Under the pieces are notes generated by a model. It did not search any database and was not told the DNA's origin. It worked only from the letters and a program-made list of their open reading frames with translations. This document shows positions 5,696 through 49,410 of a stretch of 58,849 nucleotides of DNA, piece after piece. The position numbers and the translations under genes are program-made. The stretch is from contig JAUSJT010000002.1 in NCBI GenBank assembly GCA_030647485.1, forward strand, positions 1-58,849. Direction: 5' to 3'. Within the stretch, counting starts at the first letter, position 1, and the number at the start of each line of letters is the position of its first letter. Origin of the DNA: a bacterium. Lineage in GTDB: Bacteria; Patescibacteriota; Minisyncoccia; Minisyncoccales; UBA10102.

Positions 5696-5773
5696 AATCA
5701 CCCCGACCCCCAGCTTAAGACACCTTCGGTTTCTTACGTCGCTTCGCTCCTATTTTTCCACCACGGGGTAATT
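5696..5773 (-). repeat. 78-bp inverted-repeat element, copy 1 (5 nt upstream of tRNA-Arg CCG)
   Basis: 75/78 identical to 49333-49410; terminal IR AATCACCCCG/CGGGGTAATT. Confidence 0.9.
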
Positions 5774-5795
5774 TGAATTTTGCTACTGCAAAATT

Positions 5796-6743
5796 TTACT
5801 TTGCGCGAGAGACGCGGATAAGTCCTCCGCAAGGAACAATCTCAATGCCCTGTTTTTCGAGTTCGTCTAAGATAAGGTTCATGCCAATGGAATCGGAAGA
5901 TATGTGCCCTACGTTAATAACATTCACGTGGGCGGCTTCAGCTTCTTTCTTGTGCTCGTCAGACTGGTGCATCGCAATGTTGGTTCCTATGCCGGCCTGC
6001 GCCATGCGCTCATACAGCTTAGGAGAACCCTCTGTGCCGCCAGTCATTTCGGTTATGGCAATCTTCCCGCATCTGTTTTCAGGGTTCCCCACCATAATCG
6101 TAGGCCCCACACCCTGCTCAATCGCTTTCTTGTATTCTTCAACCTCGCACAGAATGCTCATCAAGTCTTCAAGGCGTTCTGGACTCTTTGATTCAACTAC
6201 ATTGCGAATAAAGGTTGCAGCATTGTTATCTGCCACCGTGTGAAGACACATAAGATTCATACCGAGAAGGCGCGAGGCATCCACTGTTCTCCAGTTGTTG
6301 CGTGGGTTAAGCCCTCTCGCAACCTCACCTATGCGCTCTTTCATTAACCCTTCTCCGATGTTTACGGGAACTCCGTACTGGTTGAGCACATCTATCTGCA
6401 GCTCCATCACCTCATGAAGATCTGCAAGGGCTCTGCCTAAAGGATGATGAGAGATAACCAGATCAATACCACCGAGTTCCTTTGCTAAAAGAATTTCTCC
6501 CACCTCAATATCAATGCCAACCAGAACTTTCTTGATTTCCTTATCGTCCGCAACGTGAAGAATCCTCGTGTCGGAATAAGGATTGGACAGGGATTCCTGG
6601 TCAAATCCCTTTTTTTCTTTCTCAGAGAGTTTCTCGAACTTCTTTCGTTTTCTGTCAAGCAGTTTCTCTATATCTTCTTTGCTACGAAAATCAGCCTTCC
6701 TTCCGCTTTCTATTGCTAGATTATAAATCTCTTGAATTCTCAT
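5796..6743 (-). CDS. NIF3/YbgI-like metal-binding protein
   Basis: VGIDIEVGE, LVISHHPLG, MCLHTVADN, IAMHQSDEH, VGHISSDSIGMN. Confidence 0.8.
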   Translation of the reverse strand: MRIQEIYNLAIESGRKADFRSKEDIEKLLDRKRKKFEKLSEKEKKGFDQESLSNPYSDTRILHVADDKEIKKVLVGIDIEVGEILLAKELGGIDLVISHHPLGRALADLHEVMELQIDVLNQYGVPVNIGEGLMKERIGEVARGLNPRNNWRTVDASRLLGMNLMCLHTVADNNAATFIRNVVESKSPERLEDLMSILCEVEEYKKAIEQGVGPTIMVGNPENRCGKIAITEMTGGTEGSPKLYERMAQAGIGTNIAMHQSDEHKKEAEAAHVNVINVGHISSDSIGMNLILDELEKQGIEIVPCGGLIRVSRAK

Positions 6744-6967
6744 TTCTCTTTTTTAGAGCTCACTGCCTCTTGGGGTTTTGAGGGAGTAATGGGAGAAACA
6801 GACGCCTTTGCTTTCGCACCCTTGGTCTGATACCTTTGTATCATATCCTCATAGAACTTTGAGATGCGCCGTTCCTGCTCTGCCACATCTAAAACCTGCC
6901 TTCGGATGGTGGCCTTGAAAAGACGGATATGTTTTCTCACGCTTTGCGGAAAGGTATATATTGACAT
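6740..6967 (-). CDS. Hypothetical protein (75 aa)
   Basis: Stop overlaps the NIF3 start (ATGA); plausible basic helical sequence. Confidence 0.6.
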   Translation of the reverse strand: MSIYTFPQSVRKHIRLFKATIRRQVLDVAEQERRISKFYEDMIQRYQTKGAKAKASVSPITPSKPQEAVSSKKEK

Positions 6968-7069
6968 ATGGTTGGTTATACCATGTTTATTCTTTCGTGT
7001 CCACGCCCCTAGACAAAAAGGGGATTGTATGCTTAAACATGAACAGAACTCTCGTGATGGAGGCGTAAG

Positions 7070-7525
7070 ATGGTTTTAGATAAAAGCCTTTCTCTGGATG
7101 GACAGATGGAGCGCCTGGAAAAACTCATCGCTCTCGCACGCGATGCCCAGTTCACGTCTCTTGTGCTTAAAGAAGTACAAGAAAGAGTGAAGGATCTCCC
7201 TTCTTGCGAAGTGCCGTGGGGAGACATGGAACTCCGTTTGCAGGGCATGATCCCCAGGATTCTCTGGGCCATTGGGATAGCGGAGACCATGACTCTAGTA
7301 TTCCGCGATTCGTGGGGGCCGGGTGTTCCTTGGCTGAACGACCTACGAACCACAAGGGCTCTCTCAAGAAGCGAGCGCTGGGCTGCAGCTGCGTGCGCCC
7401 TCTCGCTTCCAGAGATACAAGGCCGTATCCAGGGAGGAGCGATCCCTAGAGAGTACATGCTCGTTGCCGTAGAAACCTTCAGGCAACATGTTACGGGATT
7501 AGGGAAAGAGATATACGGGACCTAG
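7070..7525 (+). CDS. Hypothetical orphan protein (151 aa)
   Basis: GGAGG about 6 nt upstream of ATG; fills the gap between oppositely oriented genes. Confidence 0.5.
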   Translation: MVLDKSLSLDGQMERLEKLIALARDAQFTSLVLKEVQERVKDLPSCEVPWGDMELRLQGMIPRILWAIGIAETMTLVFRDSWGPGVPWLNDLRTTRALSRSERWAAAACALSLPEIQGRIQGGAIPREYMLVAVETFRQHVTGLGKEIYGT

Positions 7526-7539
7526 GACTGTCGCATTCG

Positions 7540-8832
7540 CTACAGTCCCTTTTCTTTTACCTGCATTTCTTCTCTTACTACCCCTCTATCATCCCAGGGA
7601 ATTTTCCTACCTCCCTTTATTGCGATAGAATCCTCGCTTCCCTTTCCGGTTATAATCACAACATCTCCTGGCTTTGCTTGAGATAAAGCAGTTCTGATCG
7701 CTTCTCTCCGGTCAAGGATTATCTCTCCCCTCCCTTTAGTACCTTCATACACCTCATGAATAATCTTCTCTGGGTCTTCCTCATACGGGTCTTCATTTGT
7801 GATGACCACCCGGTCGCAATAGGTTGCTGCTATCTTCCCCAGCACCGGCCTCTTCCATCTGTCCCTACCTCCTCCTGCGGCTCCCAGTACACATATCAGC
7901 TTCCCCTTTTTGGGCTTCAATGTTTGATACACTTTCTCTAAGGCGGCTGGGGTAAACGCATAATCCACAACCACGCGAAAGGGTTTTTGTACCACTGTTT
8001 CCATTCTTCCTGGCACAACTACCATTTTTTCTAGAGCCTTACTGCATACTTGAAGAGAAATACCTTGAGAGCGCGCCACTGCAATTGCGGCTAGCGCGTT
8101 GTATGCATTAAATTCTCCTAAAAGTTTCAAGTGAAAGTTAGTATCATCTACTTGGAAACTTACCCCATTCTCGTTCTCTACGACGGGAGAGCTCTGGATT
8201 TTCTGCAGACGCGTAGGGCCCCATTCAGCAAATGGGGTAAAGCGCAAAGAAAATTCAGAGCTCGAACCGTAGAGATAGAGCTTTTTTGAGGGAAAAGAAA
8301 GAAAGTATGACACATGTTCGTCGTCTGCATTCAACACATGTATCTCTTTTGCAGCAGCGAATAGCTTCCCTTTTGTGCGCTTGTAATTCTCAAATGATCC
8401 GTGACGTTCAATGTGTTCAGGACTTAGATTAGTAAATACAGCGGTATGAAAATTAATAAACCGGTGTCGGTGCTGCAAAATTCCTTCCGAAGTTACCTCC
8501 AGCACAACATGGGTACATCCTGCGTCCTTTGCCTGGCGCAAAAACTGCTGTATGACAAAACGGCCCGGCATGGTCATCTTCATTGTATTTCTCCACTCTT
8601 TGTCCAGAATTTGAAACCTAATAGAAGAAAGAGACGCGGTCTTTAGCCCTGCTTCTTGGAATATGCGAGAAAGCATATCCACTGTGGTGGATTTCCCGTT
8701 GGTCCCTGTAACCCCTATGACAATCATGCCCCGCGATGGAAACCCGTACAGAAGGGCGCCCAAAAAGGCTAGCCCAAAATGGTACCAGCTCAAAAGAAAT
8801 CCCGGAACAAGTTTTCTGATAAGACGAAACAT
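7540..8832 (-). CDS. murE: UDP-N-acetylmuramyl-tripeptide synthetase
   Basis: GVTGTNGKSTT, LEVTSEG, FTNLSPEHIE, VPGRME, VDYAFTP, GAAGGGRD, TNEDPYEED, TGKGSE. Confidence 0.92.
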   Translation of the reverse strand: MFRLIRKLVPGFLLSWYHFGLAFLGALLYGFPSRGMIVIGVTGTNGKSTTVDMLSRIFQEAGLKTASLSSIRFQILDKEWRNTMKMTMPGRFVIQQFLRQAKDAGCTHVVLEVTSEGILQHRHRFINFHTAVFTNLSPEHIERHGSFENYKRTKGKLFAAAKEIHVLNADDEHVSYFLSFPSKKLYLYGSSSEFSLRFTPFAEWGPTRLQKIQSSPVVENENGVSFQVDDTNFHLKLLGEFNAYNALAAIAVARSQGISLQVCSKALEKMVVVPGRMETVVQKPFRVVVDYAFTPAALEKVYQTLKPKKGKLICVLGAAGGGRDRWKRPVLGKIAATYCDRVVITNEDPYEEDPEKIIHEVYEGTKGRGEIILDRREAIRTALSQAKPGDVVIITGKGSEDSIAIKGGRKIPWDDRGVVREEMQVKEKGL

Positions 8833-9396
8833 TTAGCGTTTTGCTATCTTTAGCGCCTCTTTCACCTTTTCTTTCAGAGAGTCCAATCCTTGGGGGATTT
8901 GCGAGAGGGCCTCTTTTGCTTTTTGTCGAGAGAATCCCAGGGCAATCAAAGCGTCTATCGCATCATCATCTTCTTTTCCAGTTTCCTGCTTTAGTGTTTT
9001 TAATTTACCGGTAAGCTCTAAAATCACCTTCTGTATTTTCTTTTGCCCAATGCCGTGCACACCAGCAAAAAAAGAAGCATCTCCTTTTTCAATAGCTTCT
9101 CGCATTTGCTCTCTTGTCCCCAAGGAAGAAAGGCGAAGTGCAGCTTTAGGCCCAATCCCAGAAATGCCCTTGAGGGTTTCAAACAGCTCCAGCATCTCGG
9201 GGGATTCTACTCCGTACAATTCCAGGGTTTCGTCTTGGCGGATATGCAGAGAACAGTAGAGTTCTGATGCGCTGCCCACAGGAAAAGAATTGATCAAGTT
9301 AGCTGCTAAGAATATCTTGTACCCTACCCCTCCGGTGTCTGTTATGATATAGTCGGGGCCTCGGGCAATAACCGTGCCCTTGATGTACGAAATCAT
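8833..9396 (-). CDS. ruvA: Holliday junction branch migration protein RuvA
   Basis: MISYIKG, GVGYKI, ISGIGPKAAL, GIGQKK, ALIALGFS. Confidence 0.95.
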   Translation of the reverse strand: MISYIKGTVIARGPDYIITDTGGVGYKIFLAANLINSFPVGSASELYCSLHIRQDETLELYGVESPEMLELFETLKGISGIGPKAALRLSSLGTREQMREAIEKGDASFFAGVHGIGQKKIQKVILELTGKLKTLKQETGKEDDDAIDALIALGFSRQKAKEALSQIPQGLDSLKEKVKEALKIAKR

Positions 9397-9400
9397 GTCC

Positions 9401-9424
9401 TACGAATTACGAATATATACGAAT
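9401..9424. repeat. Heptamer repeat TACGAAT x3 in the ruvA/uvrB divergent spacer
   Basis: Units at 9401, 9408 and 9418. Confidence 0.8.
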
Positions 9425-9439
9425 TATACTCCGTAGTAA

Positions 9440-11470
9440 ATGAAATTCAAACTGGTATCGAATTTCCGTCCCACGGGCGATCAGCCCCAGGCAATTGAGA
9501 AACTAGAGGCGAACATCCAAAAGGGACTGCGCCACCAGGTGCTTTTGGGCGTGACAGGCTCTGGGAAAACCTACACCATGGCTTCCCTCATTGAGAAAGC
9601 GCAAAAGCCCGCCCTTATCATATCCCCAAACAAAACCCTAGCTGCCCAGCTCTACCAGGAGTTCAAAGAGTTCTTCCCCAATAACGGCGTGCATTACTTT
9701 GTCTCCTACTATGACTACTACCAGCCCGAGGCATACATACCCCAATCTGATACATATATAGAAAAGGATGCCAAGATAAACGAGGTGCTAGACCGGCTTC
9801 GCCATGAAGCGGTGCAAGACGTATTATCAAGAAAAGACGCGATCGTGGTGGCCTCTGTCTCTTGCATATACAATATCGGCTCTCCTGAAGAATACCAGCG
9901 GGTTGCCCTTAAAATACAGCAGGGCCAGAAGATAACGAGAAGAGAACTTCTACGACATATCACCTCTCTCCAATATCAAAGAAACGACACTGACTTCAAG
10001 CCAGGGACCTTTCGCGCCAGGGGGGATGTTATAGAAATCTTTTTGGTCACAGGAAAAGAAATCCTCACCATAGAGTTTAAGGGAGACACCATTGAAAGCA
10101 TCCAAACTACGCAAGATCTCTTGCGCTCTTTGCCTATCCCACTTTCTCAATGCACGCTCTACCCTGCGAAATTCTGGGTCACTCCCCAGGAAAAACTCTT
10201 CATCGCGCTAGCTAATATACGATTGGAGCTCCAAGAGCAATTACAGTATTTAAAGAAGCAAAACAAGCTAGTGGAAGCCCAGCGCTTGGAACAAAGAACC
10301 ATGTATGACTTAGAGATGATTGAGGAATCGGGATACTGCCACGGCATTGAAAACTACTCACGGCACTTTGAGTTCCGGGATCCGGGAACTCCTCCCTTCA
10401 CCCTCCTAGACTACTTTGGGGACGACTTTCTCATTTTTATTGATGAAAGCCACCTTACCCTTTCCCAGTTAAAGGCAATGTCTGTGCAAGATAAAATCAG
10501 AAAGCAGTCTCTCATACAATACGGCTTTCGGCTCCCATCTGCACAGGACAACCGTCCCCTTACTTTCTCTGAGTTCTTTACGAAAGCAAAGAAACTCGTA
10601 TACGTTTCAGCTACCCCGGGAGAGTATGAAACAGATCTAGCAATGCAGCAAAAAGACGGAGGACTAAACGCCATAGTAGAACAGGTCGTACGCCCCACTG
10701 GACTCTGCGAACCTACAATAGAAATACGAAAGACCGCCAACCATATGCAAAATCTTATAAAAGAGCTCCGGAGGGTGACAGAAAACCATCAGCGCGCCCT
10801 GGTTGTCACGGTCACCAAGCGCCTCGCAGAAGACATCGCAGACTACCTCACCCTGCACTCTATCAAAACCCAATGGATTCATTCTGAACTCAAAACCCTA
10901 GAGCGCCCCGCTCTTCTGGAAGACTTGCGAAGAGGAAACGTTGACGTTCTTGTCGGGGTAAACCTTCTACGAGAAGGACTTGATCTCCCCGAGGTATCCC
11001 TGGTTGCAATCTTAGACGCAGACAAAGAAGGGTTCTTGAGGAACGCGACAACGCTCATACAAACCATGGGAAGGGCGGCCAGACATCCTGAAGGAAGAGT
11101 TATCCTGTATGCAGATACGATAACTCTGTCTATGAAAGCTGCCTTGCAAGAAGTGGAAAGGAGAAGAAAAATACAAGAACGGTACAATAAAGAACACGGC
11201 ATTACTCCCCAGGCAATTGTGAAAGCGATACGAGAATGGCCCTTCCCGCAAAAACAAAAGAGCGTGAGCGTAGAACTTTCCCAGATGACTGACGTTGCGC
11301 TCTTGGAGCACGAGATGAAAGAGGCTGCCTCATCCCTAGATTTTGAACGGGCAGTACAGATACGAGACTTGATTAAAAAAGCAAAGGGTGGTATAGAAAC
11401 TTCATATGCCAATCACCACATCAGCAAAGAAGGCTCTAAGACAGAGCAAAAAGAGAGGCGCAAGAAATAA
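9440..11470 (+). CDS. uvrB: Excinuclease ABC subunit B
   Basis: PTGDQPQAI, LGVTGSGKT, YFVSYYDYYQPEAY, IDESH, LLREGLDLPEV, C-terminal UVR motif. Confidence 0.97.
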   Translation: MKFKLVSNFRPTGDQPQAIEKLEANIQKGLRHQVLLGVTGSGKTYTMASLIEKAQKPALIISPNKTLAAQLYQEFKEFFPNNGVHYFVSYYDYYQPEAYIPQSDTYIEKDAKINEVLDRLRHEAVQDVLSRKDAIVVASVSCIYNIGSPEEYQRVALKIQQGQKITRRELLRHITSLQYQRNDTDFKPGTFRARGDVIEIFLVTGKEILTIEFKGDTIESIQTTQDLLRSLPIPLSQCTLYPAKFWVTPQEKLFIALANIRLELQEQLQYLKKQNKLVEAQRLEQRTMYDLEMIEESGYCHGIENYSRHFEFRDPGTPPFTLLDYFGDDFLIFIDESHLTLSQLKAMSVQDKIRKQSLIQYGFRLPSAQDNRPLTFSEFFTKAKKLVYVSATPGEYETDLAMQQKDGGLNAIVEQVVRPTGLCEPTIEIRKTANHMQNLIKELRRVTENHQRALVVTVTKRLAEDIADYLTLHSIKTQWIHSELKTLERPALLEDLRRGNVDVLVGVNLLREGLDLPEVSLVAILDADKEGFLRNATTLIQTMGRAARHPEGRVILYADTITLSMKAALQEVERRRKIQERYNKEHGITPQAIVKAIREWPFPQKQKSVSVELSQMTDVALLEHEMKEAASSLDFERAVQIRDLIKKAKGGIETSYANHHISKEGSKTEQKERRKK

Positions 11471-11684
11471 GCAGGTGCGCGTGAAGGTAAGGGACGTGAT
11501 CAAGGAAATGCGCACACTGATCTCTCAGAAAAAAATAGAAGAGGCGCGGCTCCTCCTCCCCAAACTCTACAAAACCTTAGATAAGGCGGCGAAGGTTGGC
11601 GTAATGAAAAAGAATACGGTCTCGAGAAAGAAATCCCGCATTACCCTATCACTCACCAAGGACAAACCAGGAAAGAGCGCGTGA
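11406..11684 (+). CDS. rpsT: 30S ribosomal protein S20
   Basis: MPITTSAKKALRQ...LDKAAKVGVMKKNTVSRKKSR. Confidence 0.95.
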   Translation: MPITTSAKKALRQSKKRGARNKQVRVKVRDVIKEMRTLISQKKIEEARLLLPKLYKTLDKAAKVGVMKKNTVSRKKSRITLSLTKDKPGKSA

Positions 11685-12584
11685 AGGTTCCATACTCCCG
11701 GTTTTGAGTCCAAGCTCAATATCAAAAATCCTCCTCAACCCTTTTTTCAACTCTGCTAAAGAGAAGTTTTTTGTAGCTTCCCACGTTTTTTTCACCACAT
11801 AGGGATGCAACTTTGTCTTTTTCACAATATCATTATAGGAAAAATGAAGTTCTGCCATTTCCTTCACCGCCAGAAGGGCTCGGAATTGGAATCCTAGTGT
11901 AGAAAGAATGCGCAAGGGGTGGTCTCCATGCTTTTCATGATTCGCAAGCAATGCCAATGCCTGCTTTGCATTTCTGGCGGAAAGCGCATCTATGGTCGCA
12001 AAAATCTCGCTCTCCACCACGGGTTCCACCAAATCTTCAATATCATGCCTTGAAAGAGTAGATCCCTTGGAGTACGAGACGAGCTTTGCAATTTCATTGG
12101 AAAGGCGCCACAGGTCGTTCCCCACTGCCTCTGCTAATGCGCTCTGCGCCTCGAATGAAATCTTGACCCCGTAGCGCAGGAACTCTTGCGCAACCCAAGA
12201 GGTCAAGCTTCTTTGAGAAAGAGGAGAAAACTCCTGTATTCTCCCGTGGGCCTTGAGGAAAACAAAAAGAGCGTCTTTCTCCTCACAGCTTCCATCTTGA
12301 GAGAACACAAGAACCTGGGGCGTCTTTACTAACTCCTCTTTGTATCTCAAAAGCTGCTCTGCGATTTCTTGCGCGGAGAACGGATTCTCCAGGACGACAA
12401 GTTTCTTTTCTCCAAACAATGAAACCCCGCGTATTTCCTGGAGAACCTCTTGCATGTCTGCTTGTAAACAGTCAAACACGCGCACATAGAATTTCTCTTT
12501 GTGCAGACTGAGATAGCGCTCCTTGATTTCTTGAAGCTTCCGTGCTTTCAGGAACGATTCTTCCCCATGCAGCAGCAAAAGCAT
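11649..12584 (-). CDS. holA: DNA polymerase III delta subunit
   Basis: LLHGEESFL, VSLFGEKKLVVL, GNDLWRLSNEIAKL, LHPYVVKK, LKTGS. Confidence 0.9.
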   Translation of the reverse strand: MLLLLHGEESFLKARKLQEIKERYLSLHKEKFYVRVFDCLQADMQEVLQEIRGVSLFGEKKLVVLENPFSAQEIAEQLLRYKEELVKTPQVLVFSQDGSCEEKDALFVFLKAHGRIQEFSPLSQRSLTSWVAQEFLRYGVKISFEAQSALAEAVGNDLWRLSNEIAKLVSYSKGSTLSRHDIEDLVEPVVESEIFATIDALSARNAKQALALLANHEKHGDHPLRILSTLGFQFRALLAVKEMAELHFSYNDIVKKTKLHPYVVKKTWEATKNFSLAELKKGLRRIFDIELGLKTGSMEPSRALSWFVLGE

Positions 12585-12949
12585 TATTTAAGGATTGACT
12601 TGATCTTGGTCAAAATCTCTCCTGGAGTGAAATGCGCCTTTATAAGATAATCTGCGGCGCCAAGATTCATGCCGCGTTCCACGTCATCTTTCTGCCCCAA
12701 GTTTGAGAGAATAATCACGGGGATGCTGGAGGTTTCGGGATTCTCTTTCACCTGGCGGAGTACCTCAAATCCGTCGATACCAGGCAGGATAAGATCGAGC
12801 AACATTAAATCCGGCTTCTCTTCTTTTGCCTTTGCGACGCCCTCTTCCCCACTCACAGCTTCCACTACAAGGTACCCTTCTTTGAGCACCTTTTGGGTAA
12901 TGAGGTCTCGGAGAAACTTATCATCTTCTACGATAACGATTTTTGCCAT
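12584..12949 (-). CDS. Stand-alone response regulator (receiver only)
   Basis: IVEDD, LLDLILPGIDG (phospho-Asp), ILSN, YLIK; no output domain. Confidence 0.92.
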   Translation of the reverse strand: MAKIVIVEDDKFLRDLITQKVLKEGYLVVEAVSGEEGVAKAKEEKPDLMLLDLILPGIDGFEVLRQVKENPETSSIPVIILSNLGQKDDVERGMNLGAADYLIKAHFTPGEILTKIKSILK

Positions 12950-12981
12950 ACTATTTGCAGCTATGTAATTATGAAAGATGC

Positions 12982-40610: not shown

Positions 40611-40621
40611 TGTTATGGTTA

Positions 40622-40711: not shown

Positions 40712-40723
40712 ACAGCGTATCCT

Positions 40724-41746: not shown

Positions 41747-41775
41747 CAGAGAAGCTCAACAAAGAGCTTCTCTTT

Positions 41776-42141: not shown

Positions 42142-42163
42142 AAGAAATTTCTATCTTTTATTA

Positions 42164-43210
42164 TCACCTACTTTGTATTATCAGGTCAACCGCTTTAGTC
42201 AAGCTCTCAAAAGAAGTGGCAAGGATAAGCTTTGTGCCAAAGAGGGTATATACAACCCCAAAGTCCAGTGCCGAGAACGTCTGGAATCTGACCAGGCTGT
42301 TCTGGTGAACAGTCTGTCTAAAAAAGGGAGTATAGGCAGATCCTTTCTGTCCTACAATTCCCCAAAGCTGTTTTGTGTCTTGCTCAAGAGTTGTTTCCCA
42401 CGTCCTCAATATGTCCTGTACTCCTTCAATCTGATAAAGCTCTCCTATAAACCCGAGGCGTTTCCTTCCAGGAGAAGAATATACAAACAGCATAAAGTCT
42501 TTTTTGAACAGGGCAAGCAGGGGTTCTGGCAAGGCCACAGCTGCTTTATTCAGGAATTCTCTCGTGGTTAAGAATGTTTTGTCTTCTGTGTTTTGCAGGC
42601 GAATCCTTGTAAACCCTTGCAGATATTCTTCTTTGAGGGTGTTAGACAAAAGCGAGAGAAGATTGTCTGCCACAGCAACCTCAATAGTTTTTTCTTGTAC
42701 CGCGCCAAAGAACAGAACTGGAGTTGGGGCTACGCCTTCCCCGCCAACATCCAAAGAAGTTGTGGCGGGTTCGGTGGGCGAAGCAGGGGCTGGCTCTGTT
42801 GTAGGAGTTTGTTGGGGGGCAGGAGTAATCTCCGCCATCTTCTTTCTTGTAAAATACCAATAGCCAAACGCGAGCCCATTTGACAGTATAAAGAGAAGAA
42901 CTCCTATGACTATGAGCCTAATGACAATCTTTTCAGAATGTGTTTTCGCCTTCACGAATACGGGCTTTTGTACTTCTGCATGGGGCATGAGAGAGGGGGG
43001 TATTGGCTGGGGTTGAGGAATTTTCATGCCTGTCTCGGTTTCCTTCTTGGGTTCTTCCGTTTTGATCTGAGTTATACGTTCCCGTTCTTTTTTCGATTCC
43101 TCCTCTCGGAGCAGGGCTACATCCTTTGCCATAGTCCTCACCTCTTCTCGTTTAAGAAATTGAAGGGTTTCTTCAACCTCTGGCTTTTTTGAAGGGAGGG
43201 GTTCTGCCAT
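42164..43210 (-). CDS. Hypothetical single-TM protein with Pro-rich linkers
   Basis: 348-aa ORF co-oriented and tightly packed between pnp and the dksA-like gene. Confidence 0.75.
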   Translation of the reverse strand: MAEPLPSKKPEVEETLQFLKREEVRTMAKDVALLREEESKKERERITQIKTEEPKKETETGMKIPQPQPIPPSLMPHAEVQKPVFVKAKTHSEKIVIRLIVIGVLLFILSNGLAFGYWYFTRKKMAEITPAPQQTPTTEPAPASPTEPATTSLDVGGEGVAPTPVLFFGAVQEKTIEVAVADNLLSLLSNTLKEEYLQGFTRIRLQNTEDKTFLTTREFLNKAAVALPEPLLALFKKDFMLFVYSSPGRKRLGFIGELYQIEGVQDILRTWETTLEQDTKQLWGIVGQKGSAYTPFFRQTVHQNSLVRFQTFSALDFGVVYTLFGTKLILATSFESLTKAVDLIIQSR

Positions 43211-43211
43211 A

Positions 43212-45329
43212 TTATGTTGAGGGTTTTTCTTGAGCGTCTTTCAAAGATAAGTTGATTCTTCCCTGTTCGTCAATTTCAACTACTTTTACAGGGATAACAT
43301 CCCCTATTTTTACAATATCTGTTACTTTCTCCACCCTGCGATTGGCAAGCTTTGAAATGTGCACCAGCCCTTCTTGGCCTGGGAGCACTTCTACAAAAGC
43401 TCCAAACTCCATAATCCTCTTTACCTTGCCCTTGTATATTTCTCCTACTTTCACCTCTCTCACAAGTGCTTCAATTATTTCCAATGCGCGTTTTCCCTGG
43501 TCTTCTTTGTCTGCGGTGATAAAGACCTGACCGGTTTCTTCAATATCTATTTGGACGCCAGTTTCTTCAATAATTTTGTTAATGGTTTTCCCCCCGGGGC
43601 CTATTAAGAGTCCTATTTTTTCAGGGTTGATGTTGATGATGATAATGCGTGGAGCCCATGGAGAAAGCTGCGCTCTGGGCTTATCTAGCACCTTTGCAAT
43701 GACATCTTGCAGTATATGGTGGCGCGTATCCCTCGCAAGCGCCAGCGCCTCTTTGAATATCTTGCTGGTGATGCCCCGCAGTTTCACATCCATTTGTATT
43801 GCGGTGATTCCGTCTTTGGTCCCTGCAACCTTAAAGTCCATGTCTCCGTGGTGGTCTTCAGGGCCCTGGATGTCGCACAAAAGTTTGTAGTCCCCTTTGT
43901 CGTCTTGCATGAGGCCTATGGAAATACCTGCCACAGGATTCTTAATCGGAACTCCTGCGTCCATTAAAGCCAAGGAAGCGGAGCAGCACGAAGCCATAGA
44001 AGTTGATCCATTGGAAGACAGCACTTCCGTTACGATGCGAATAGTATAAGGGAATTTGTCTACTTCGGGGATGACAGGAAGCAATGCCTTTTCAGCCAAA
44101 ATACCATGTCCTATATCTCTTCTCCCCGGGCCGCGCAAGGGCTTTACTTCTCCTGGAGCGTACGGAGGAAAATTGTAGTGATGCATGAAACGCTTCTTTC
44201 CCGAGAACTCCATGCCCTCCATAAGTTTTTGGTCTCCTGGAGCTCCAAGGGTAAGTATAGAAAGTGTCTTGGTCTGGCCTCGTAAAAATAGCCCTGTCCC
44301 GTGGGTGCGAGGCAGAATGCCCACTCTTCCTTCAAGCTCGCGTATCTCGTCCAGTTTTCTATCGTCTACCCGCTTACCCTCTTTAAGGGCTGCTTCGTGT
44401 ACAACTCGATTCACCTCTTCCTCAAAAAAGTCTTTTGCATACCTGCTTTTGTCTTCAGCGGGGTATTGCTCTTGCAAGAACGCAAGCAGTTCTGTTTGCA
44501 CGTCGTTTACCTTGCCCATTCTTGTTTTTCTATCTCCCTCAAAGAGCGCCTGTTCTAGCTTCTTTCCTAGAAACTCTTTTATAACGCGCTCTAGTTCTTC
44601 GTCTCTGGGAGTTTCTTTTGGGTCTACCTTTTCTTTGCCAAACTTCTTTGCGATTTCTTCTTGCGCATCAATCATTTGTGAAAGAAACGGTTTTGCAAAC
44701 TCCAGTGCTTGTTCAAACACGTCTTCTGCAACTTCCTGCCCTTCTGCCTCTATCATATTCAAAAGAATCTCTCCTTTTTCCTTTACTCCGGCTAGCACAA
44801 AATCAACAGGGCTCTGCTTTCTCTGCTCATACGTAGGATTCACCACGAACGCATCTTGGATCTTTGCTATGCGCACAGCTCCCACAGGCCCTTGCCAGGG
44901 GATGTCAGAAACAGAGAGCGAAAGCGAAGCTCCCAGAAGCCCTAGCACGTCAGAGTCGTTCTCTGCATCCCAGGAAAGGCAGGTTACAATAACCTGGACT
45001 TCTTTGCGGAACCCCTTGGGGAACAAGGGACGAATGGCGCGGTCAATAAGGCGAGCCGTAATAATAGCTTCGTCTGCGGGTCTTCCCTCTCTCCGTACGA
45101 ATCTGGAGCCCAGGATTTTCCCTGCGGCATAGAACCGTTCCTCGTAATCCACTGTAAGAGGAAAGAACCCCTGATTTGCAAACGCAGAAGATGCCGCAAC
45201 CGCAGTGACAAGAATGACAGTATCTCCCTGGCGGACTAAAACACTCCCGTTTGCCTGTTCTGCAAGATCGGTAAGTTCAAGCGATATTGTTTTGTCTTGG
45301 AGTTTTATTGTATGAGGCTGAGCGGCCAT
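43212..45329 (-). CDS. pnp: Polyribonucleotide nucleotidyltransferase
   Basis: FFPLTVDYEER, RLIDRAIRPLFP, FMHHYNFPP, SNGSTSMAS, GDMDFKVAG, KH and S1 domains. Confidence 0.98.
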   Translation of the reverse strand: MAAQPHTIKLQDKTISLELTDLAEQANGSVLVRQGDTVILVTAVAASSAFANQGFFPLTVDYEERFYAAGKILGSRFVRREGRPADEAIITARLIDRAIRPLFPKGFRKEVQVIVTCLSWDAENDSDVLGLLGASLSLSVSDIPWQGPVGAVRIAKIQDAFVVNPTYEQRKQSPVDFVLAGVKEKGEILLNMIEAEGQEVAEDVFEQALEFAKPFLSQMIDAQEEIAKKFGKEKVDPKETPRDEELERVIKEFLGKKLEQALFEGDRKTRMGKVNDVQTELLAFLQEQYPAEDKSRYAKDFFEEEVNRVVHEAALKEGKRVDDRKLDEIRELEGRVGILPRTHGTGLFLRGQTKTLSILTLGAPGDQKLMEGMEFSGKKRFMHHYNFPPYAPGEVKPLRGPGRRDIGHGILAEKALLPVIPEVDKFPYTIRIVTEVLSSNGSTSMASCCSASLALMDAGVPIKNPVAGISIGLMQDDKGDYKLLCDIQGPEDHHGDMDFKVAGTKDGITAIQMDVKLRGITSKIFKEALALARDTRHHILQDVIAKVLDKPRAQLSPWAPRIIIININPEKIGLLIGPGGKTINKIIEETGVQIDIEETGQVFITADKEDQGKRALEIIEALVREVKVGEIYKGKVKRIMEFGAFVEVLPGQEGLVHISKLANRRVEKVTDIVKIGDVIPVKVVEIDEQGRINLSLKDAQEKPST

Positions 45330-45835
45330 TTCGGTTTTCTTAGTAAGTATTTCTCTACGGATTCTTCCAAATCAATGAATTCGTCTGCAACCTCGCGAAG
45401 CTTGGAAGACGTGGACTTCCCGAATGCGATGACTTCCACTCGCTTTCCATGATTTTGCAGGTATTCAACAAGAGGCACATAATCTCCGTCTCCTGAAACG
45501 AGAACAATGGCATCTACGCCAGATGATGTTTTAATAGCATCCACTGCTATGCCCACGTCCCAGTCGGCTTTCTTTATCCCCCCGTAGTACTCCTGGAGGT
45601 CTTTGACCCGAGTTTCAATGCCAAGGTTAATGAGTGCGTCAAAAAAAGGTTTTTCTTCCCCTGTCTTGGTGCGCACCACGTATGCGAACGCGCGGATGAG
45701 CTTTCTGCCCGCAACCGCGGTCTTTAATACTTCTTTGAAATTGACCCTGGCCTGGTAGATGTTTTTTGCAGAATGATAGAGATTCTGCACATCAATAAAG
45801 ATGGCAACTTCCTGGTCCTTATTTTTAAGACTCAT
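45305..45835 (-). CDS. NYN (LabA/DUF88) PIN-like domain protein
   Basis: IFIDVQNL, KADWDVGIAVD, LVSGDGDYVPLV, GKRVEV, ADEFIDL. Confidence 0.9.
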   Translation of the reverse strand: MSLKNKDQEVAIFIDVQNLYHSAKNIYQARVNFKEVLKTAVAGRKLIRAFAYVVRTKTGEEKPFFDALINLGIETRVKDLQEYYGGIKKADWDVGIAVDAIKTSSGVDAIVLVSGDGDYVPLVEYLQNHGKRVEVIAFGKSTSSKLREVADEFIDLEESVEKYLLRKPKWPLSLIQ

Positions 45836-45841
45836 TGGTGA

Positions 45842-46108
45842 TTATTTCTTCAACCCGCTTTTCTTTATAAACGCATTGTACTGCCTGGGGCTTTCCTCTT
45901 TCAGATATGCCAGCAGGGTTCTGCGCCTGGCAACCTGCCTCAAGAGCCCCCTCTTTGAGGAAAAATCTTTAGGGAATTTCTTTAAATGCAAGAGCAGTTT
46001 TCGTATCTGCTCTGAAAGCAGCGCTATTTGCACCTCGGCAGACCCTGTGTCTGCAGGGTTTATTTTAAATTCGTCTATAAACTTGGTTTTCTCCTTTGGA
46101 GTAAGCAT
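45842..46108 (-). CDS. rpsO: 30S ribosomal protein S15
   Basis: DTGSAEVQIALL, HLK..PKDFSSKRGLL..V.RRRTLL.YL. Confidence 0.96.
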   Translation of the reverse strand: MLTPKEKTKFIDEFKINPADTGSAEVQIALLSEQIRKLLLHLKKFPKDFSSKRGLLRQVARRRTLLAYLKEESPRQYNAFIKKSGLKK

Positions 46109-46247
46109 ATTCCTTCTGTATCATAAAAAACAAAAAAACGCAAGTAAGCGTTTTCTGGTGGGACGTAAGAACGTAACATTTGCTTCGCAAATTGTACGTT
46201 CAACGTTCCAACAGCGTTTAAATTTTCTTTGAAAATTTATTACGCTG

Positions 46248-46321
46248 TGCCCCCGTCGAGATTCGAACTCGAAACCTTATCCTTAAGAGGGATCTGCTCT
46301 AGCCAGTTGAGCTACGGGGGC
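46248..46321 (-). tRNA. tRNA-Lys(CTT)
   Basis: GCCCCCG..CGGGGGC-A, anticodon loop CTCTTAA, T-loop TTCGAAT; CCA not encoded. Confidence 0.92.
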
Positions 46322-46322
46322 G

Positions 46323-46439
46323 AAAAGCAAACTGCTTTGCTTTTTGCGGATTTGCGCCACTCGTCTCAGGCGAGCGAATAATGCAAATCCCGGGCCTGTT
46401 TTAGAAAACTGTGGCACGCAAATCGTTTTCTAAAACAGG
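46323..46439. repeat. Three consecutive hairpins between tRNA-Lys and the pilin gene
   Basis: AAAAGCAAA-CTGC-TTTGCTTTT; GGATTTGC..GCAAATCC; CCTGTTTTAGAAAAC..GTTTTCTAAAACAGG. Confidence 0.75.
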
Positions 46440-46449
46440 TACATTCTTG

Positions 46450-46911
46450 TTAAGGTCCGCACTTAATGTTCCACCACTCTCCAAGGCCCGTCCATGGTGC
46501 GACCCCAAGGAATGAAAGTATGGACATCACCATTACCCAGGCAATATATACCACAAGAAGGCCTATAACAACAGCGGTGATAATGTCTTTCCCCGTCTTT
46601 TGGCGTTCTGGCTGTCCTGCAGCGATAAGAATATAGAAACCTCCAACCAAGATAAGGAGAGTTGCTATTAATGGAACAACGGCAACCCCATTATTTACGG
46701 AAGGAGAGGGTACCAGGAAGAATATAATAATGTTGTTGATGAGCTTAAAGATGTCGCAGAATCCGCACGCCTCCTTATTATCTATCTTCCCATCTATTGG
46801 CTGGCCATTACTTCCATCAATTCCGCATTGGACAATTCCCGCATCAGCAGTCAAAGGCACAACAGAAAAAAGCAGGAAGAGTACGGTGAGTATAGGGATG
46901 ATTTTTCTCAT
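46450..46911 (-). CDS. CPR-type (VirB2/TrbC-like) pilin
   Basis: Signal peptide, GIVQCG..CGFCDIFKLINNII, GGFYILIAAGQPE..GKDIITAVVIGLLVVY. Confidence 0.75.
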   Translation of the reverse strand: MRKIIPILTVLFLLFSVVPLTADAGIVQCGIDGSNGQPIDGKIDNKEACGFCDIFKLINNIIIFFLVPSPSVNNGVAVVPLIATLLILVGGFYILIAAGQPERQKTGKDIITAVVIGLLVVYIAWVMVMSILSFLGVAPWTGLGEWWNIKCGP

Positions 46912-46931
46912 GTGTTTAGCATATCATATTT

Positions 46932-47006
46932 TGGTGTCCCCGGGAGGATTCGAACCCCCACTAACAGATTCGAAGTCTGTCGTGATATCCGTTTCACTAC
47001 GGGGAC
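46932..47006 (-). tRNA. tRNA-Arg(TCG)
   Basis: GTCCCCG..CGGGGAC-A-CCA, anticodon loop CTTCGAA, A20 in the D-loop. Confidence 0.88.
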
Positions 47007-47068
47007 GCGCGCTTCAATCCTATCTTATTTCATTGAAAAATTCAATGATTTCACCTAGTATGGAGGTT

Positions 47069-48547
47069 ATGAAAGGAAGCATTCCCAAAGAGGTAAAATC
47101 AGTGGTTGCAGAACTTGAAAAACAGGGTTTTGAGGCATATATCGTGGGAGGATGCGTAAGAGATATGTTTTTGGGCAGGGAACCTCAAGACTGGGATGTT
47201 GCAACCTCTGCTACCCCAGAAGAGGTTCAGAAAGTATTCCCAGATAATTTTTATGAGAATAAGTTCTTCACGGTTACGGTGCGCACGCAAGCTTCAGACC
47301 CCAAACTTAAAGAGATAGAGGTGACGAGTTACCGGTCTGACTTAAGATACGGAGACCGAAGACATCCTGAAGAAGTGCAGTATGCAAAAACCGTTGAGGA
47401 AGATCTTGCGAGGCGAGATTTCACGGTAAATGCGATTGCCCTTGGGATAGGGAAACCAGGTTTCCCAAGGAAACCTGGTTTCCAAATCCTAGATCCTTTT
47501 GGCGGAAGAGAAGACCTAAAAGCCAAGCTCATCCGGGCAGTAGGAACCCCAGATGAGCGATTTCAAGAAGACGCACTGCGCATGATGCGGGGTGTGAGGT
47601 TTTGCGCAACTCTTGGATTCGCGCTTGAGCCAGAAACACGCAAAGCCATTGCAAAGAACGTGTCCCTTCTTAAAGAAATTTCGCAAGAGCGCATACGGGA
47701 CGAGTTTGCAAAAATCATCATGGCAGAGAAAGCAGGGGAGGGCGTAGAGACGCTGCGGGAGCTCGGGCTTTTAGAATTCATTATCCCAGAGCTTGTTGAG
47801 GGATACGGCGTGACCCAGAACAAACACCATATCTACACCGTATGGGAACATAATCTTTTATCGTTAGAGTACGCGGTAAAGCAAAAATGGAGTTTTGAGA
47901 TACGTTTGGCTTCCCTCTTGCATGACGTTGGCAAACCTAGAGTAAAGAAGGGAGAAGGCAAAGATTCAACGTTCTATGGACATGAGGTTGTGGGTTCTCG
48001 TCTGGCCAAGCAGATTCTTTCACGCCTGAAGTTTCCCCAAAAAACCATTGAGAAAATAGTTACCCTAGTGCGTTATCACCTGTTTTATTACAACGTGGGA
48101 GAAGTGACAGAAGCTTCCATACGTCGGCTTGTGAAGAACGTAGGACCAGAAAACACAGAAGAGCTGCTGCAGGTTCGCATGGCAGACCGCATTGGGTCTG
48201 GCGTCCCCAAGGCAGAACCCTACAAGTTGCGTCATTTGAGGTATTTGATTGACAAAGTGTCTCAAGATCCAATTTCTGCAAAGATGCTCAAGGTGAAAGG
48301 AGATGACGTTATGAGCATACTTGGCATTACGCCTGGCCCCAGGATAGGATGGATTCTTGACGCGCTCTTGGCCGCTGTGTTGGAAGATCCAAAGAAGAAC
48401 GAGAAGGATATCCTTACTCAATATGTGAAAGAGTTAGGGGGCTTGCCAGAAGAGAAGCTTCGTGCGATATCAAAGAAGGCGGAGCAGGAGCGCGAGAATG
48501 TCGAAATGAAAAGAGATGAAATGACAAAAGAGAAGTATTGGGTTTGA
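47069..48547 (+). CDS. cca: CCA-adding tRNA nucleotidyltransferase with HD domain
   Basis: VGGCVRD, DWDVAT, EVTSYR, EDLARRDFTVNA, EDALRMMR, SQERIRDE, LLHDVGKP. The track's start at 46730 is an over-extension. Confidence 0.92.
   Translation: MKGSIPKEVKSVVAELEKQGFEAYIVGGCVRDMFLGREPQDWDVATSATPEEVQKVFPDNFYENKFFTVTVRTQASDPKLKEIEVTSYRSDLRYGDRRHPEEVQYAKTVEEDLARRDFTVNAIALGIGKPGFPRKPGFQILDPFGGREDLKAKLIRAVGTPDERFQEDALRMMRGVRFCATLGFALEPETRKAIAKNVSLLKEISQERIRDEFAKIIMAEKAGEGVETLRELGLLEFIIPELVEGYGVTQNKHHIYTVWEHNLLSLEYAVKQKWSFEIRLASLLHDVGKPRVKKGEGKDSTFYGHEVVGSRLAKQILSRLKFPQKTIEKIVTLVRYHLFYYNVGEVTEASIRRLVKNVGPENTEELLQVRMADRIGSGVPKAEPYKLRHLRYLIDKVSQDPISAKMLKVKGDDVMSILGITPGPRIGWILDALLAAVLEDPKKNEKDILTQYVKELGGLPEEKLRAISKKAEQERENVEMKRDEMTKEKYWV
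47451..47483. repeat. 33-bp in-frame double palindrome inside cca
   Basis: GGAAACCAGGTTTCC-CAA-GGAAACCTGGTTTCC; encodes about GKPGFPRKPGF. Confidence 0.88.
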
Positions 48548-48568
48548 AACCAACTGCTTGGTTTCAAA
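48543..48568. repeat. Hairpin overlapping the cca stop
   Basis: TTTGAAACCAA-CTGC-TTGGTTTCAAA. Confidence 0.7.
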
Positions 48569-48644
48569 GGGCATTTTAGCGAGCAGTCCCTGCGAGCGTT
48601 AAGAAATGCCCCGGGGTTCGCCGGAGGCGAACTACACTATACCT

Positions 48645-49223
48645 ATGGATTATACATCAAGGCTGTATGCATTTTTACAACCGGTAGACCCTACCTATGT
48701 GCAGAGGGTGAAGAAATATCTTGATCCCCAGCCCCAAGACAAAATACTGGAAATAGGGTGCGGTCGCGGATACACGACCAAGAGGGTTCAGTACATCACA
48801 CCTCAGACATTTGGCATTGATCTTAACGCCAAAGCAATACAAAACGGAGTGGCCCAGAATCTGCAGGTCATGGATGCCGAAGCCCTTGAGTTTTCAGACA
48901 ATACCTTTGACAAGATCTACTCCTTTCACACCGTTGAGCATATCCCGAATATTGCCAAAGCCTTTCGCGAAATGGTTCGTGTGTTAAAGCCAAGAGGTAA
49001 GATAATGCTTGTGTATCCCGCAGAGCCCATACGAGGTATGTTCGCAATGTTTGCAGCCGCAGTTCTCCTAAAAAATCCATTCCGTGCGCGAGAAATTCAT
49101 ATGCATAAATTGTCCCCTGCGATTATACAACGGCTGATCTCTGGATTTGGACTTGAACATGTGCAGAGCTCTTTTTCACTCTGGCTTCCTGAGTTTCGCA
49201 CCATATTGCAAAAAAGAATATAG
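48645..49223 (+). CDS. Class I SAM-dependent methyltransferase
   Basis: ILEIGCGRG, GIDLN, MDAEALEFSDNTFD, EHIP, RVLKPRG. Confidence 0.9.
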   Translation: MDYTSRLYAFLQPVDPTYVQRVKKYLDPQPQDKILEIGCGRGYTTKRVQYITPQTFGIDLNAKAIQNGVAQNLQVMDAEALEFSDNTFDKIYSFHTVEHIPNIAKAFREMVRVLKPRGKIMLVYPAEPIRGMFAMFAAAVLLKNPFRAREIHMHKLSPAIIQRLISGFGLEHVQSSFSLWLPEFRTILQKRI

Positions 49224-49231
49224 TAAAGTTT

Positions 49232-49304
49232 CGGGGTGTAGCCTAGTAGCCAAGGCGCCGGCTTCGGGAGTCGGAGATCAGAGGTGCAAATCCTCTCACC
49301 CCGA
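49232..49304 (+). tRNA. tRNA-Pro(CGG)
   Basis: CGGGGTG..CACCCCG-A, anticodon loop TTCGGGA, T-loop TGCAAAT. Confidence 0.92.
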
Positions 49305-49332
49305 CAAACAATTTTTCAACAGAAAAATTGCA

Positions 49333-49410
49333 AATCACCCCGTGGTGGAAAAATAGGAGCGAAGCGACGTAAGAAACCGAAGGTGTCTTAAGCCAGGGGT
49401 CGGGGTGATT
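49333..49410 (+). repeat. 78-bp inverted-repeat element, copy 2 (4 nt upstream of tRNA-Ala)
   Basis: CAAATCACCCCG / CGGGGTGATTTG perfect 12-bp IR; 75/78 to copy 1. Confidence 0.9.

Follow-up and report, generated by a model that had tools for sequence, protein, structure and literature searches.

The two repeats that directly precede tRNA genes in the window (the whole stretch of DNA analyzed, 58,849 nt of contig JAUSJT010000002.1) are two members of a small, gene-less, multi-copy element family of Parcubacteria, with about 20 copies in the 630-kb genome. We consider it fairly probable that the family is a mobile, non-autonomous DNA repeat whose presence in tRNA leaders does little harm, as it is removed by RNase P.

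Two near-identical repeats precede tRNA-Arg and tRNA-Ala

Copy A was located at 5696..5774 on the minus strand and copy B at 49332..49411 on the plus strand by sequence, blastn and alignment. The covariance model matched them with 81 and 80 bits, respectively, and with one copy as blastn query against the whole genome the pair gave E = 3.7e-32. The first-pass annotation had placed the pair correctly and described it as 75/78 identical, in agreement with pairwise alignment over the element. Sequence, ARAGORN and Rfam also bore out that both copies are in the sense of the adjacent tRNA, and placed their ends 3–5 nt before +1. P0, an AT-rich hairpin, P1, a closing stem of 12 bp, and two inner hairpins, of which one is GCGAAGC, make up each unit together with invariant junctions; the unit measures about 90–110 nt including P0. 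Fold analysis of both copies recovered the previously noted pairing of the ends over 10–12 bp as well as the inner GC-GAA-GC and ACC-GAA-GGT hairpins.

In copy A (all minus strand), P1a (5774-5764) is followed by the junction TGGTGGAAAAATA between P1a and the GCGAAGC mini-hairpin (about 5750-5737), by P2 (5736-5716), the purine run AGCTGGGGGT (5715-5706) and P1b (5705-5696). The spacer CGTTT (5691..5695; sequence, ARAGORN) leads to +1 of tRNA-Arg(CCG) at 5616..5690 (ARAGORN and Rfam). Copy B, on the plus strand, is composed of P1a (49332-49342), junction (49343-49355), GCGAAGC hairpin (49356-49369), P2 (49370-49390), purine run AGCCAGGGGT (49391-49400) and P1b (49401-49411). The spacer GAT (49412-49414) separates it from tRNA-Ala(CGC) at 49415..49489 (plus strand; ARAGORN and Rfam), the +1 of which is 49415 by Rfam and the G3-U70 rule or 49414 by ARAGORN. 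P0 was identified by sequence and fold as AAATTTTGC-AGTA-GCAAAATT in copy A (5776..5795, minus strand), where it begins right where the upstream nif3-like gene ends with its stop codon (5798-5796), and as CAATTTTTC-AACA-GAAAAATTG in copy B (49309..49330, plus strand). This hairpin directly 5' of each copy had been overlooked in the first-pass annotation. The upstream neighbor of copy B is tRNA-Pro(CGG) (49232..49305, plus strand; ARAGORN). Since this gene is preceded by a promoter-like TTCGCA-18-TATAGT ending 8 nt upstream, tRNA-Pro, copy B and tRNA-Ala probably form a single transcript. Misassembly is unlikely because the independent MAG L130 has an orthologous copy at tRNA-Arg(CCG).

Copy number and distribution of the family

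The first-pass annotation counted two copies. Across the genome, 9 copies were detected by blastn, more by nhmmer and 20 by the covariance model. Eighteen of 41 relatives carry the family, with 0–19 copies each, and within the class it was found in 13 of 151 genomes, which belong to at least nine families; a strict pattern scan matched MAGs of Wildermuth-, Staskawicz- and Nealsonbacteria. Judged by their identity, the near-identical pairs (Ala and Arg, 95%; atpD and nusG, 94%; C1:294 and rpsA, 100%) are recent copies. Only tRNAs passed the gathering score in Rfam 15, and a search of 16 loci at E <= 5 yielded no relevant family, ribozymes included. No published description of the repeat family was found in the literature.

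Conserved structure and a mirror-purine core

The fold z-scores of copy B were -4.9 as RNA and -5.5 as DNA, while those of copy A were weaker (-1.0 and -2.3, respectively). Overall, 96.7% of cells were paired and 16 of 21 pairs displayed double (compensatory) changes; none of 500 shuffles matched this. The P0 stems co-vary among copies, the outer half of P1 varies with pairing retained, and P2 shows compensatory changes in the L130 ortholog. The unpaired nucleotides are near-invariant across distant families, and a circularly permuted form exists in which all conserved nucleotides are kept. The conserved feature is the secondary structure and not the stem sequence.

The 3' arm (P1b) is preceded by a purine run that mirrors it, and both co-vary among 45 distinct standard-order (unpermuted) and 10 permuted cores. 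G•G-C switches to T•A-T at mirrored positions, where T stands opposite A in 4/4 cases compared to 0/41 otherwise, in three different stem types. The mirror run lengths are correlated (rho 0.87), no shuffle out of 2000 matched the observed mirror score, and five different permuted cores contain perfect homopurine mirrors of 7–9 nt. The core combines a pyrimidine arm with two mirror-symmetric purine blocks (triads of the G•G-C, A•A-T and T•A-T types). Such mirror co-variation is the hallmark of an intrastrand triplex of the purine motif, and the conserved core looks like a DNA triple helix. To our knowledge, natural triple helices of this motif have rarely received comparative support of the kind that mirror-purine co-variation gives.

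The near-invariant unpaired bases, the permuted form and the compensation in L130 are also expected of a functional RNA. A functional RNA module spreading by mobility is a minor possibility; its conserved core would be either a novel RNA that cleaves itself or takes part in processing, or a small RNA that is stable. In the latter case, RNase P and RNase Z would free the small RNA from transcripts of the tRNA-unit-tRNA type. The 3' end would be set by the tRNA neighbor. Four of the six tRNA copies in this genome do lie between two tRNAs, so precise excision would be expected, and the invariance of junction nucleotides next to co-varying stems across families as well as a permuted form retaining every conserved nucleotide, like known ribozyme families, would suit such a molecule. 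The predominance of sense orientation at tRNA sites and the 19 G-T versus 9 A-C mismatches have been counted on this side as well, and are compatible with RNA and with top-strand DNA alike. However, 5 of about 18 full copies are antisense to flanking genes, ribozyme and other RNA families of Rfam failed to match even at E <= 5, and the element is absent from most relatives and therefore has no essential role. GCGAAGC, moreover, is a classic DNA mini-hairpin. The mirror-purine co-variation also argues against RNA: because purine-motif triplexes are stated to be unable to form in RNA (PMC4666352), the working form of the element is most likely single-stranded DNA, as we infer from sequence patterns together with the cited biophysics.

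Insertion sites

Six of the 20 copies in this genome lie at tRNA 5' ends, compared to about 3% expected (p = 3e-5), and 11 of 47 copies do so in other genomes (p = 2e-7). The targeting of tRNA 5' ends suggested by the first-pass annotation is supported as an enrichment; it does not describe the family as a whole, as about 70% of the copies are away from tRNAs and occupy, in both orientations, gene junctions or start codons, including the junctions at atpD, nusG, rpsL and mreB/gatC. The excess at tRNA ends may reflect true targeting, survival of harmless insertions, or both.

No target-site duplication was found at the two window copies. Elsewhere, ATG(A) is duplicated at start codons, and duplications of 9–24 nt occur at other copies. 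Many copies in relatives have a 9–24 nt direct repeat of flanking sequence, which is also present in antisense 5' of P1a (L127, L144, L134, L046, L139, L050/L108 and L059). These arrangements would fit a nucleic-acid-guided ('address-bearing') homing or integrative family, in which an antisense segment by the core pairs with the target and the target is duplicated; the window copies would then be a generic subfamily whose specific address was lost or never needed. Permuted copies at tRNA 3' ends, in which a second tRNA 3' end and a T-arm segment in antisense are present, and one copy nested within another in G012 point in the same direction. We nevertheless regard this explanation as rather unlikely. 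The window copies are 95% identical at different tRNAs and have neither a flank duplication nor a target-complementary segment, P0 is not target-derived because the same P0 sequence recurs at unrelated sites, and no recombinase is linked to the element, IS110 being absent. Doubtful, too, is a triplex-cored module of about 60 nt, in two circular permutations, which a short antisense address would guide to exact integration sites at start codons and tRNA ends. Such a module could act alone (DNAzyme- or ribozyme-like) or with an unrecognized host factor, and the family would be a new class of mobile element, the active part of which is folded nucleic acid rather than a protein-binding end.

Both window sites were found empty in relatives, with spacers of 1–10 nt. 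The gap from tRNA-Pro(cgg) to tRNA-Ala(cgc) is 1–4 nt in G016 and G039, where the element is absent, and that from the same upstream (nif3-like) gene to tRNA-Arg(ccg) is 2–10 nt in G016 and G014b. At tRNA-Ala(cgc), G017 retains only a 3' remnant and G018 carries a different subfamily; other element families fill the tRNA-Arg(ccg) site in G003, G011 and G020. Most relatives have 1–10 nt spacers or unrelated sequence at these two tRNAs. Further polymorphism occurs in the Tyr-Thr spacer, where the copy is inverted in G001, and in the Arg(tct)-His spacer, which is filled in G012 and G033 and empty in G000. The empty orthologous sites show that the two window copies were inserted and do not represent conserved leaders. 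A structured pre-tRNA leader under conservation, as the first-pass annotation had also considered, or a promoter/terminator cassette tuning tRNA expression or RNase P processing is very improbable: the tRNA copies in this genome do lie 2–12 nt from +1 and always in sense, with T usually at position -1 and -10-like hexamers in the AT-rich P0, but most relatives lack the element at the same tRNAs, copies also occur at the protein-gene junctions in both orientations, and promoter and terminator scans gave nothing within the element.

Relationship to known mobile repeats

The first-pass annotation had proposed a MITE. The element resembles one in being inserted, multi-copy, non-coding and polymorphic for presence at orthologous sites; it is not a MITE in the strict sense. 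The P1 inverted repeat varies and is internal, between P0 and the 3' tail, instead of forming conserved terminal repeats, and no terminal inverted repeats were found at the two window copies. The target duplications are not of fixed length, and no autonomous partner IS with matching ends was found among the Y1_Tnp genes, nor an IS110-type gene. The genome contains five Y1/RAYT-like genes, which are flanked by other hairpins; none of the five is flanked by the element, which speaks against a REP/REPIN-RAYT pair. Across genomes, co-occurrence of such genes with the element was weak (Fisher p = 0.025, phylogeny ignored). No cognate TnpA or TnpB was found beside the copies, and the ORF adjoining one copy encodes RodA. 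Nor do the window copies match an att-type tRNA integrative element, since they adjoin the tRNA 5' end and show no duplication.

The closest parallels are the BoxC/PIT/TMECO repeats of the intrastrand triplex kind, known from E. coli and further bacteria (Hoyne and Maher 2000; Holder et al. 2015, PMC4666352). Both groups are short, intergenic, multi-copy and gene-less, combine a C-rich arm with a mirror-symmetric pair of G-rich blocks (purine-motif triplex), vary patchily in copy number among relatives, include some inverted pairs and are without a known mobilizing enzyme. In contrast to BoxC/PIT/TMECO, the element has its third strand flanked by the Watson-Crick arms on either side and is thereby a permuted class I (its permuted copies are plain class I), and it bears extra hairpins (P0, P2, GCGAAGC) and invariant junctions, abuts tRNA +1 and start codons, and has target duplications and antisense segments in many relatives. 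It also occurs in Parcubacteria instead of Proteobacteria or Cyanobacteria. The TMECO consensus CCCTCNCCC-N3-6-GGGNGAGGG-N3-GGGNGAGGG differs in block order and sequence and lacks the extra hairpins. By these features, the element works like the BoxC/PIT/TMECO kind without being a member.

With REP/REPIN the element shares structure-conserved, extragenic hairpins in both orientations, occasional head-to-head dimers (L044, L124) and a genome with five Y1-family genes; it is larger and multi-stemmed and has no conserved GTAG foot. Correia/NEMIS (Neisseria), RUP and ERIC are likewise about 100 nt long, non-coding and multi-copy, fold into long hairpins beside gene starts in either orientation and are co-transcribed with host genes, as predicted for the element. 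Unlike these, the element has no fixed-sequence terminal inverted repeats, its stem varying with pairing kept, no constant target duplication and no known parent IS. Among elements that target tRNA genes, integrative islands use tRNA 3' ends, and Ty3 and TRE5-A insert upstream of eukaryotic tRNA genes. They share with the element a preference for tRNA gene ends as safe landing places, and the permuted relatives, to which no integrase is linked, duplicate the tRNA 3' part like the attL/attR sites of islands. The window copies differ from islands by their 5' position and by having neither duplication nor integrase, while Ty3 and TRE5-A depend on Pol III factors that are absent here. IS200/IS605 single-strand transposons share asymmetric ends, subterminal hairpins, short internal guides that pair with the target and folded single-stranded DNA, the last two as proposals in the case of the element; unlike them, the element has no conserved tetranucleotide 5' of the copies and no adjacent cognate TnpA/TnpB.

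A model for mobility and persistence

In the mobile DNA repeat that we favor, the conserved core would fold within one strand through the 12-bp stem, the G-rich 3' arm of which would also be bound by the adjacent mirror-image purine run as third strand, and would additionally bear two very stable GNA-loop hairpins. The folded single-stranded form would arise in replication or as a transposition intermediate and would be recognized by a trans-acting enzyme. Copies in front of tRNAs would be co-transcribed in the pre-tRNA leader (Pro-unit-Ala; nif3-unit-Arg) and would persist before +1 because RNase P, whose RNA gene is present in the genome, cuts the transcribed element off the pre-tRNA, leaving a small host cost.

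Parcubacteria genomes are among the smallest and most compact known. This one nevertheless bears about 20 copies of a structured and presumably selfish repeat exactly at tRNA and gene starts, insertions that would be viable only if RNase P processing and leaderless-type translation tolerate them; for this reason the family may serve as a natural probe of gene starts and tRNA maturation in Parcubacteria. The mirror-purine co-variation connects the BoxC/PIT triplex repeats of model bacteria, which are themselves poorly understood, with a family that is clearly marked as mobile. Recognition or activity of the core as folded single-stranded DNA would point to a new mobilization route; true guidance of the address-bearing relatives, to a new targeting principle; and if the triplex-cored module acts as outlined above, ultra-small bacteria would have a homing system that is programmable and needs no protein gene of its own. 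The repeats break assemblies at contig ends, and in CPR genomes they yield spurious ORFs and false 'leaders' in annotation.

A structured repeat precedes tRNA genes in the window

The two 78-bp repeats reported by the first-pass annotation were recovered at their positions and are identical at 75 of 78 positions in an alignment. With one copy as blastn query, the other was found in the 630-kb genome at E = 3.7e-32. Copy A (5774-5696, minus strand) ends 5 nt before the +1 of tRNA-Arg(CCG) at 5690, and copy B (49332-49411, plus strand) ends 3 nt before the +1 of tRNA-Ala(CGC), which is placed at 49415 by Rfam and at 49414 by ARAGORN. The copy ends pair over 10-12 bp, and both inner mini-hairpins are real. 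An AT-rich hairpin, P0, was identified directly 5' of each copy (5795-5776 for copy A, 49309-49330 for copy B). No flank repeat of 9-24 nt, no antisense segment and no second target copy was detected at the window copies.

The window is an entire contig of a four-contig genome (98.7% complete, 630 kb), in which searches with blastn, with nhmmer and with the covariance model R1, derived from 17 copies, identified about 20 copies. The unit starts with P0, the stem of which co-varies between copies, followed by a 12-bp closing stem, P1, and the junction TG-NN-GGAAA. An optional variable hairpin comes next, often GCGAAGC, a mini-hairpin that is unusually stable in DNA. The inner hairpin P2 (TTAGAAACC-GNR-GGTTTCTAA), a purine run (AAAAGAGGGGGG-T) and the 3' arm of P1, termed P1', complete the core, and one subfamily has the tail GTGTGAnCG. 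Six sense copies abut tRNA 5' ends (Ala-cgc, Arg-ccg, Thr-ggt, Trp-cca, Val-tac, and Val-gac), and four of these six fill tRNA-tRNA spacers. Other copies are located 4-13 nt upstream of the ATG of rpsL, atpD, and nusG, and further ones upstream of rpsA and mraZ. Five reversed copies separate co-directional genes, and their P0 directly adjoins the following ATG. A duplicated ATG(A) flanks the start-codon copies.

Solo GGGGTCGGG strings were considered as pre-existing target sites and rejected, as those in the genome match by chance within coding sequence or tRNAs. Likewise, P0 does not represent a target plus 'address' (a short antisense segment matching the target), because it is element-borne where the spacers of empty alleles measure 0-4 nt and because the same P0 is found again at unrelated sites. 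A string resembling a collapsed core, CCGTGTTGGAAACAGTGGGGTCGTGGGG, occurs inside apparent coding sequence at window positions 85-120; it has both conserved junction motifs and no P2, and may be a chance match or an in-frame relic.

The window copies are insertions

Comparison of orthologous sites in relatives refuted the suggestion that the repeat is a conserved pre-tRNA leader, as these sites are empty, hold a remnant or are differently filled. The gap between tRNA-Pro(cgg) and tRNA-Ala(cgc) is 108 nt in the genome under study and only 1 nt and 4 nt in the relatives G016 and G039, respectively. In G017, only the 3' remnant AAGCTGGGGGTCGGGGTGATTTTGA precedes tRNA-Ala, best read as a deletion product, and in G018 a copy of another subfamily occupies the same position. 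In G016 and G014b, 2-10 nt separate tRNA-Arg(ccg) from the end of the nif3-like gene that also precedes it in the window, and unrelated structured inserts are present at this tRNA in G003, G011, and G020. The element occupies the Arg(tct)-His spacer in G012 and G033, a spacer that is empty (20 nt) in the genome under study, and the copy between tRNA-Tyr and tRNA-Thr is inverted in G001. An orthologous copy with compensatory changes in P2 exists in an independent MAG (locus L130), which argues against misassembly. We concluded that the window copies are insertions and not conserved leaders.

The repeat had also been proposed to be a MITE targeting tRNA 5' ends. In substance, the evidence supports mobility and a preference for tRNA 5' ends, but the element is not a classical MITE. 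In the genome under study, 6 of 20 copies lie in sense directly before a tRNA, where random use of gene junctions and orientations would give about 3% (p = 3e-5). Of 47 distinct copies in other genomes, 14 face a tRNA terminus with their 3' side, 11 of them at 5' ends (same strand) and 3 at 3' ends (opposite strand), and just 3 of 47 face a tRNA with the 5' side alone. About 70% of copies are located away from tRNAs. The bias towards tRNAs is genuine, and part of it may reflect the survival of harmless insertions, the genomes being so compact.

Since RNase P RNA is present in the genome and a promoter-like TTCGCA-18-TATAGT precedes tRNA-Pro(cgg), ending 8 nt upstream of its +1 (window 49195-49305), both window copies should be transcribed as leader or spacer and would then be cut off at the tRNA +1. 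Scans for a promoter or a terminator inside the unit found none.

Distribution and permuted copies

Within the same family or order, 18 of 41 genomes carry the element (0-19 copies each). Across the class, it was found in 13 of the 151 genomes sampled, from at least nine families. A strict pattern scan of species-representative genomes matched MAGs labelled Parcubacteria, Wildermuthbacteria, Staskawiczbacteria, and Nealsonbacteria as well as 'uncultured Candidatus Saccharibacteria' (automated TPA labels), with one chance match in Komagataeibacter. Phage or plasmid carriers were rejected, as two pattern scans of viral contigs gave chance matches only, in phages of 65% GC. A full-text literature search found no account of such elements in CPR/Patescibacteria. 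Apparently, this family of small structured repeats with an unusual putative triplex core has been undescribed so far.

Many copies in other genomes are flanked by direct repeats of the target (9-24 nt), part of which is present in antisense beside P1 as well. Circularly permuted copies, with the order purine run - T - P1' - loop - P1, occur at the 3' ends of tRNA-Lys(ttt) and further tRNAs; they are accompanied by an antisense T-arm segment, and the tRNA 3' end is present a second time. Three permuted copies with P1 closed by a loop are present in the genome under study (contig C2: 288330-288660, 168290-168400, and 232570-232690). All three carry a second copy of their target and an antisense segment that matches it, the targets being a tRNA-Lys 3' end, the dnaX start, and the promoter/start region upstream of cysS. 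In G012 (locus L031, contig C25, about 1250-1500), the P1 loop of a permuted copy harbours a standard copy; the orthologous permuted copy in the genome under study is uninterrupted. At locus L125 (a contig of G030, about 3020-3140), a copy is followed by an 18-nt fragment styled like a tRNA-Thr 5' end, with the complete tRNA about 105 nt beyond; a duplicated target at a tRNA 5' end or a further insertion may account for this arrangement.

The core fold includes a mirrored purine run

A set of 52 distinct copies, drawn from many genomes, had 96.7% of cells paired and changes in both partners at 16 of 21 pairs. These values were reached in none of 500 shuffles, and slid controls collapsed. Rfam searches returned only tRNAs in the window (gathering score) and only tRNAs and noise at 16 copy loci (E ≤ 5), with no family matches.

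The purine run 5' of P1' mirrors P1' around a T-C hinge, a relation newly noted in this analysis. The length of its G-run follows that of P1' (Spearman 0.87), and the run is most often one longer. An A inside the P1' G tract, at position 4 or 5 and in three different stem types, is accompanied by a T at the mirrored position of the run in 4/4 cases (otherwise 0/41), and beyond the G tract A is opposite A. The observed mirror compatibility was attained by none of 2000 shuffles. Five different P1' sequences of permuted copies each have a perfect homopurine mirror of 7-9 nt. Watson-Crick pairing of the G-run with the C-arm was rejected, as the variants misfit this pairing and fit the mirror reading; for the junctions, the sequences do not fit a K-turn or a G-quadruplex.

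The combinations G•G-C, A•A-T, and T•A-T with an antiparallel third strand constitute the purine (reverse-Hoogsteen) motif. Judged by its sequence, the permuted form would be a class I intrastrand triplex of the textbook type. Among described objects, the BoxC/PIT/TMECO repeats come closest (PMC4666352). We consider it somewhat more probable that the selected form is folded single-stranded DNA rather than RNA, because of the triplex motif, the GCGAAGC mini-hairpin and the antisense copies. Purine-motif triplexes cannot form in RNA according to PMC4666352, citing Semerad and Maher 1994, and a review describes the evidence for RNA third strands as mixed (PMC7583470). The asymmetry among mismatches (19 G-T versus 9 A-C) shows only that one strand matters.

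Candidate mobilising enzymes

Mobility through a reverse transcriptase is made less likely by the occurrence of both orientations at gene junctions and by the putative DNA-type triplex; the one reverse transcriptase gene found (C4:54085-55254) is unlinked to any copy. It encodes a stand-alone protein of 389 aa with a YADD motif and is located near tRNA-Leu(caa). Five Y1/RAYT-like (IS200-like) genes are present in the 630-kb genome (C2:6967-7686, C2:52831-53535, C2:222156-222836, C2:26644-26877, and C1:78684-79454). A RAYT was rejected as the cognate enzyme, as the flanks of the five genes carry other, differing hairpins; 3 of 4 genes examined clearly have their own hairpin repeat on both sides. 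Among relatives, the presence of Y1/RAYT-like genes correlates weakly with that of the element. A TnpB omega-RNA was considered for the copy at C1:80707, with a Y1 gene 1.2 kb upstream, but dropped because the intervening ORF is RodA/FtsW. An IS110 bridge RNA was dismissed, the genome being without a DEDD transposase.

Neighbouring repeats and tRNA genes

A different structured repeat family abuts the +1 of tRNA-Lys(ctt) (window 46322-46470, minus strand) and has two hairpins, a long one (ACCTGTTTTAGAAAAC...GTTTTCTAAAACAGG) and AAAAAGCAAA-GCAG-TTTGCTTTT, together with a GC-rich stem. It also fills the 5' flank of tRNA-Arg(ccg) in G003, G011, and G020. Thus, three of the five window tRNAs bear an inserted element at the 5' end. 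Downstream of tRNA-Lys(ctt) (46200-46246, minus strand), GCGTAATAAATTT-N-CA-N-AGAAAATTTAAACGCTGT was observed, which is also present after the permuted element downstream of tRNA-Lys(ttt) (C2:288330-288400) and represents a further small hairpin repeat associated with tRNA 3' ends.

The position of the promoter-like site leaves almost no leader for tRNA-Pro(cgg), and elsewhere in the genome consensus promoters put the start at the ATG, e.g. at rpsA; together, these predicted starts point to a largely leaderless, Shine-Dalgarno-poor expression style. A shifted Shine-Dalgarno site was among the readings considered for a GTGATC tail of the element; the 16S 3' end is absent from the assembly. tRNA-Pro(cgg) has no encoded CCA, with C-AAAC in its place. 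A 92-aa GIY-YIG (UPF0213-like) ORF (C2:205452-205730) is located 112 nt downstream of tRNA-Trp in the Tyr-unit-Thr-rpmG-unit-Trp hotspot. Finally, ARAGORN predicted two tRNA-Ile with the anticodon TAT (C1:39639-39715 and C2:258715-258789), which is unusual since bacteria normally use CAT with lysidine.
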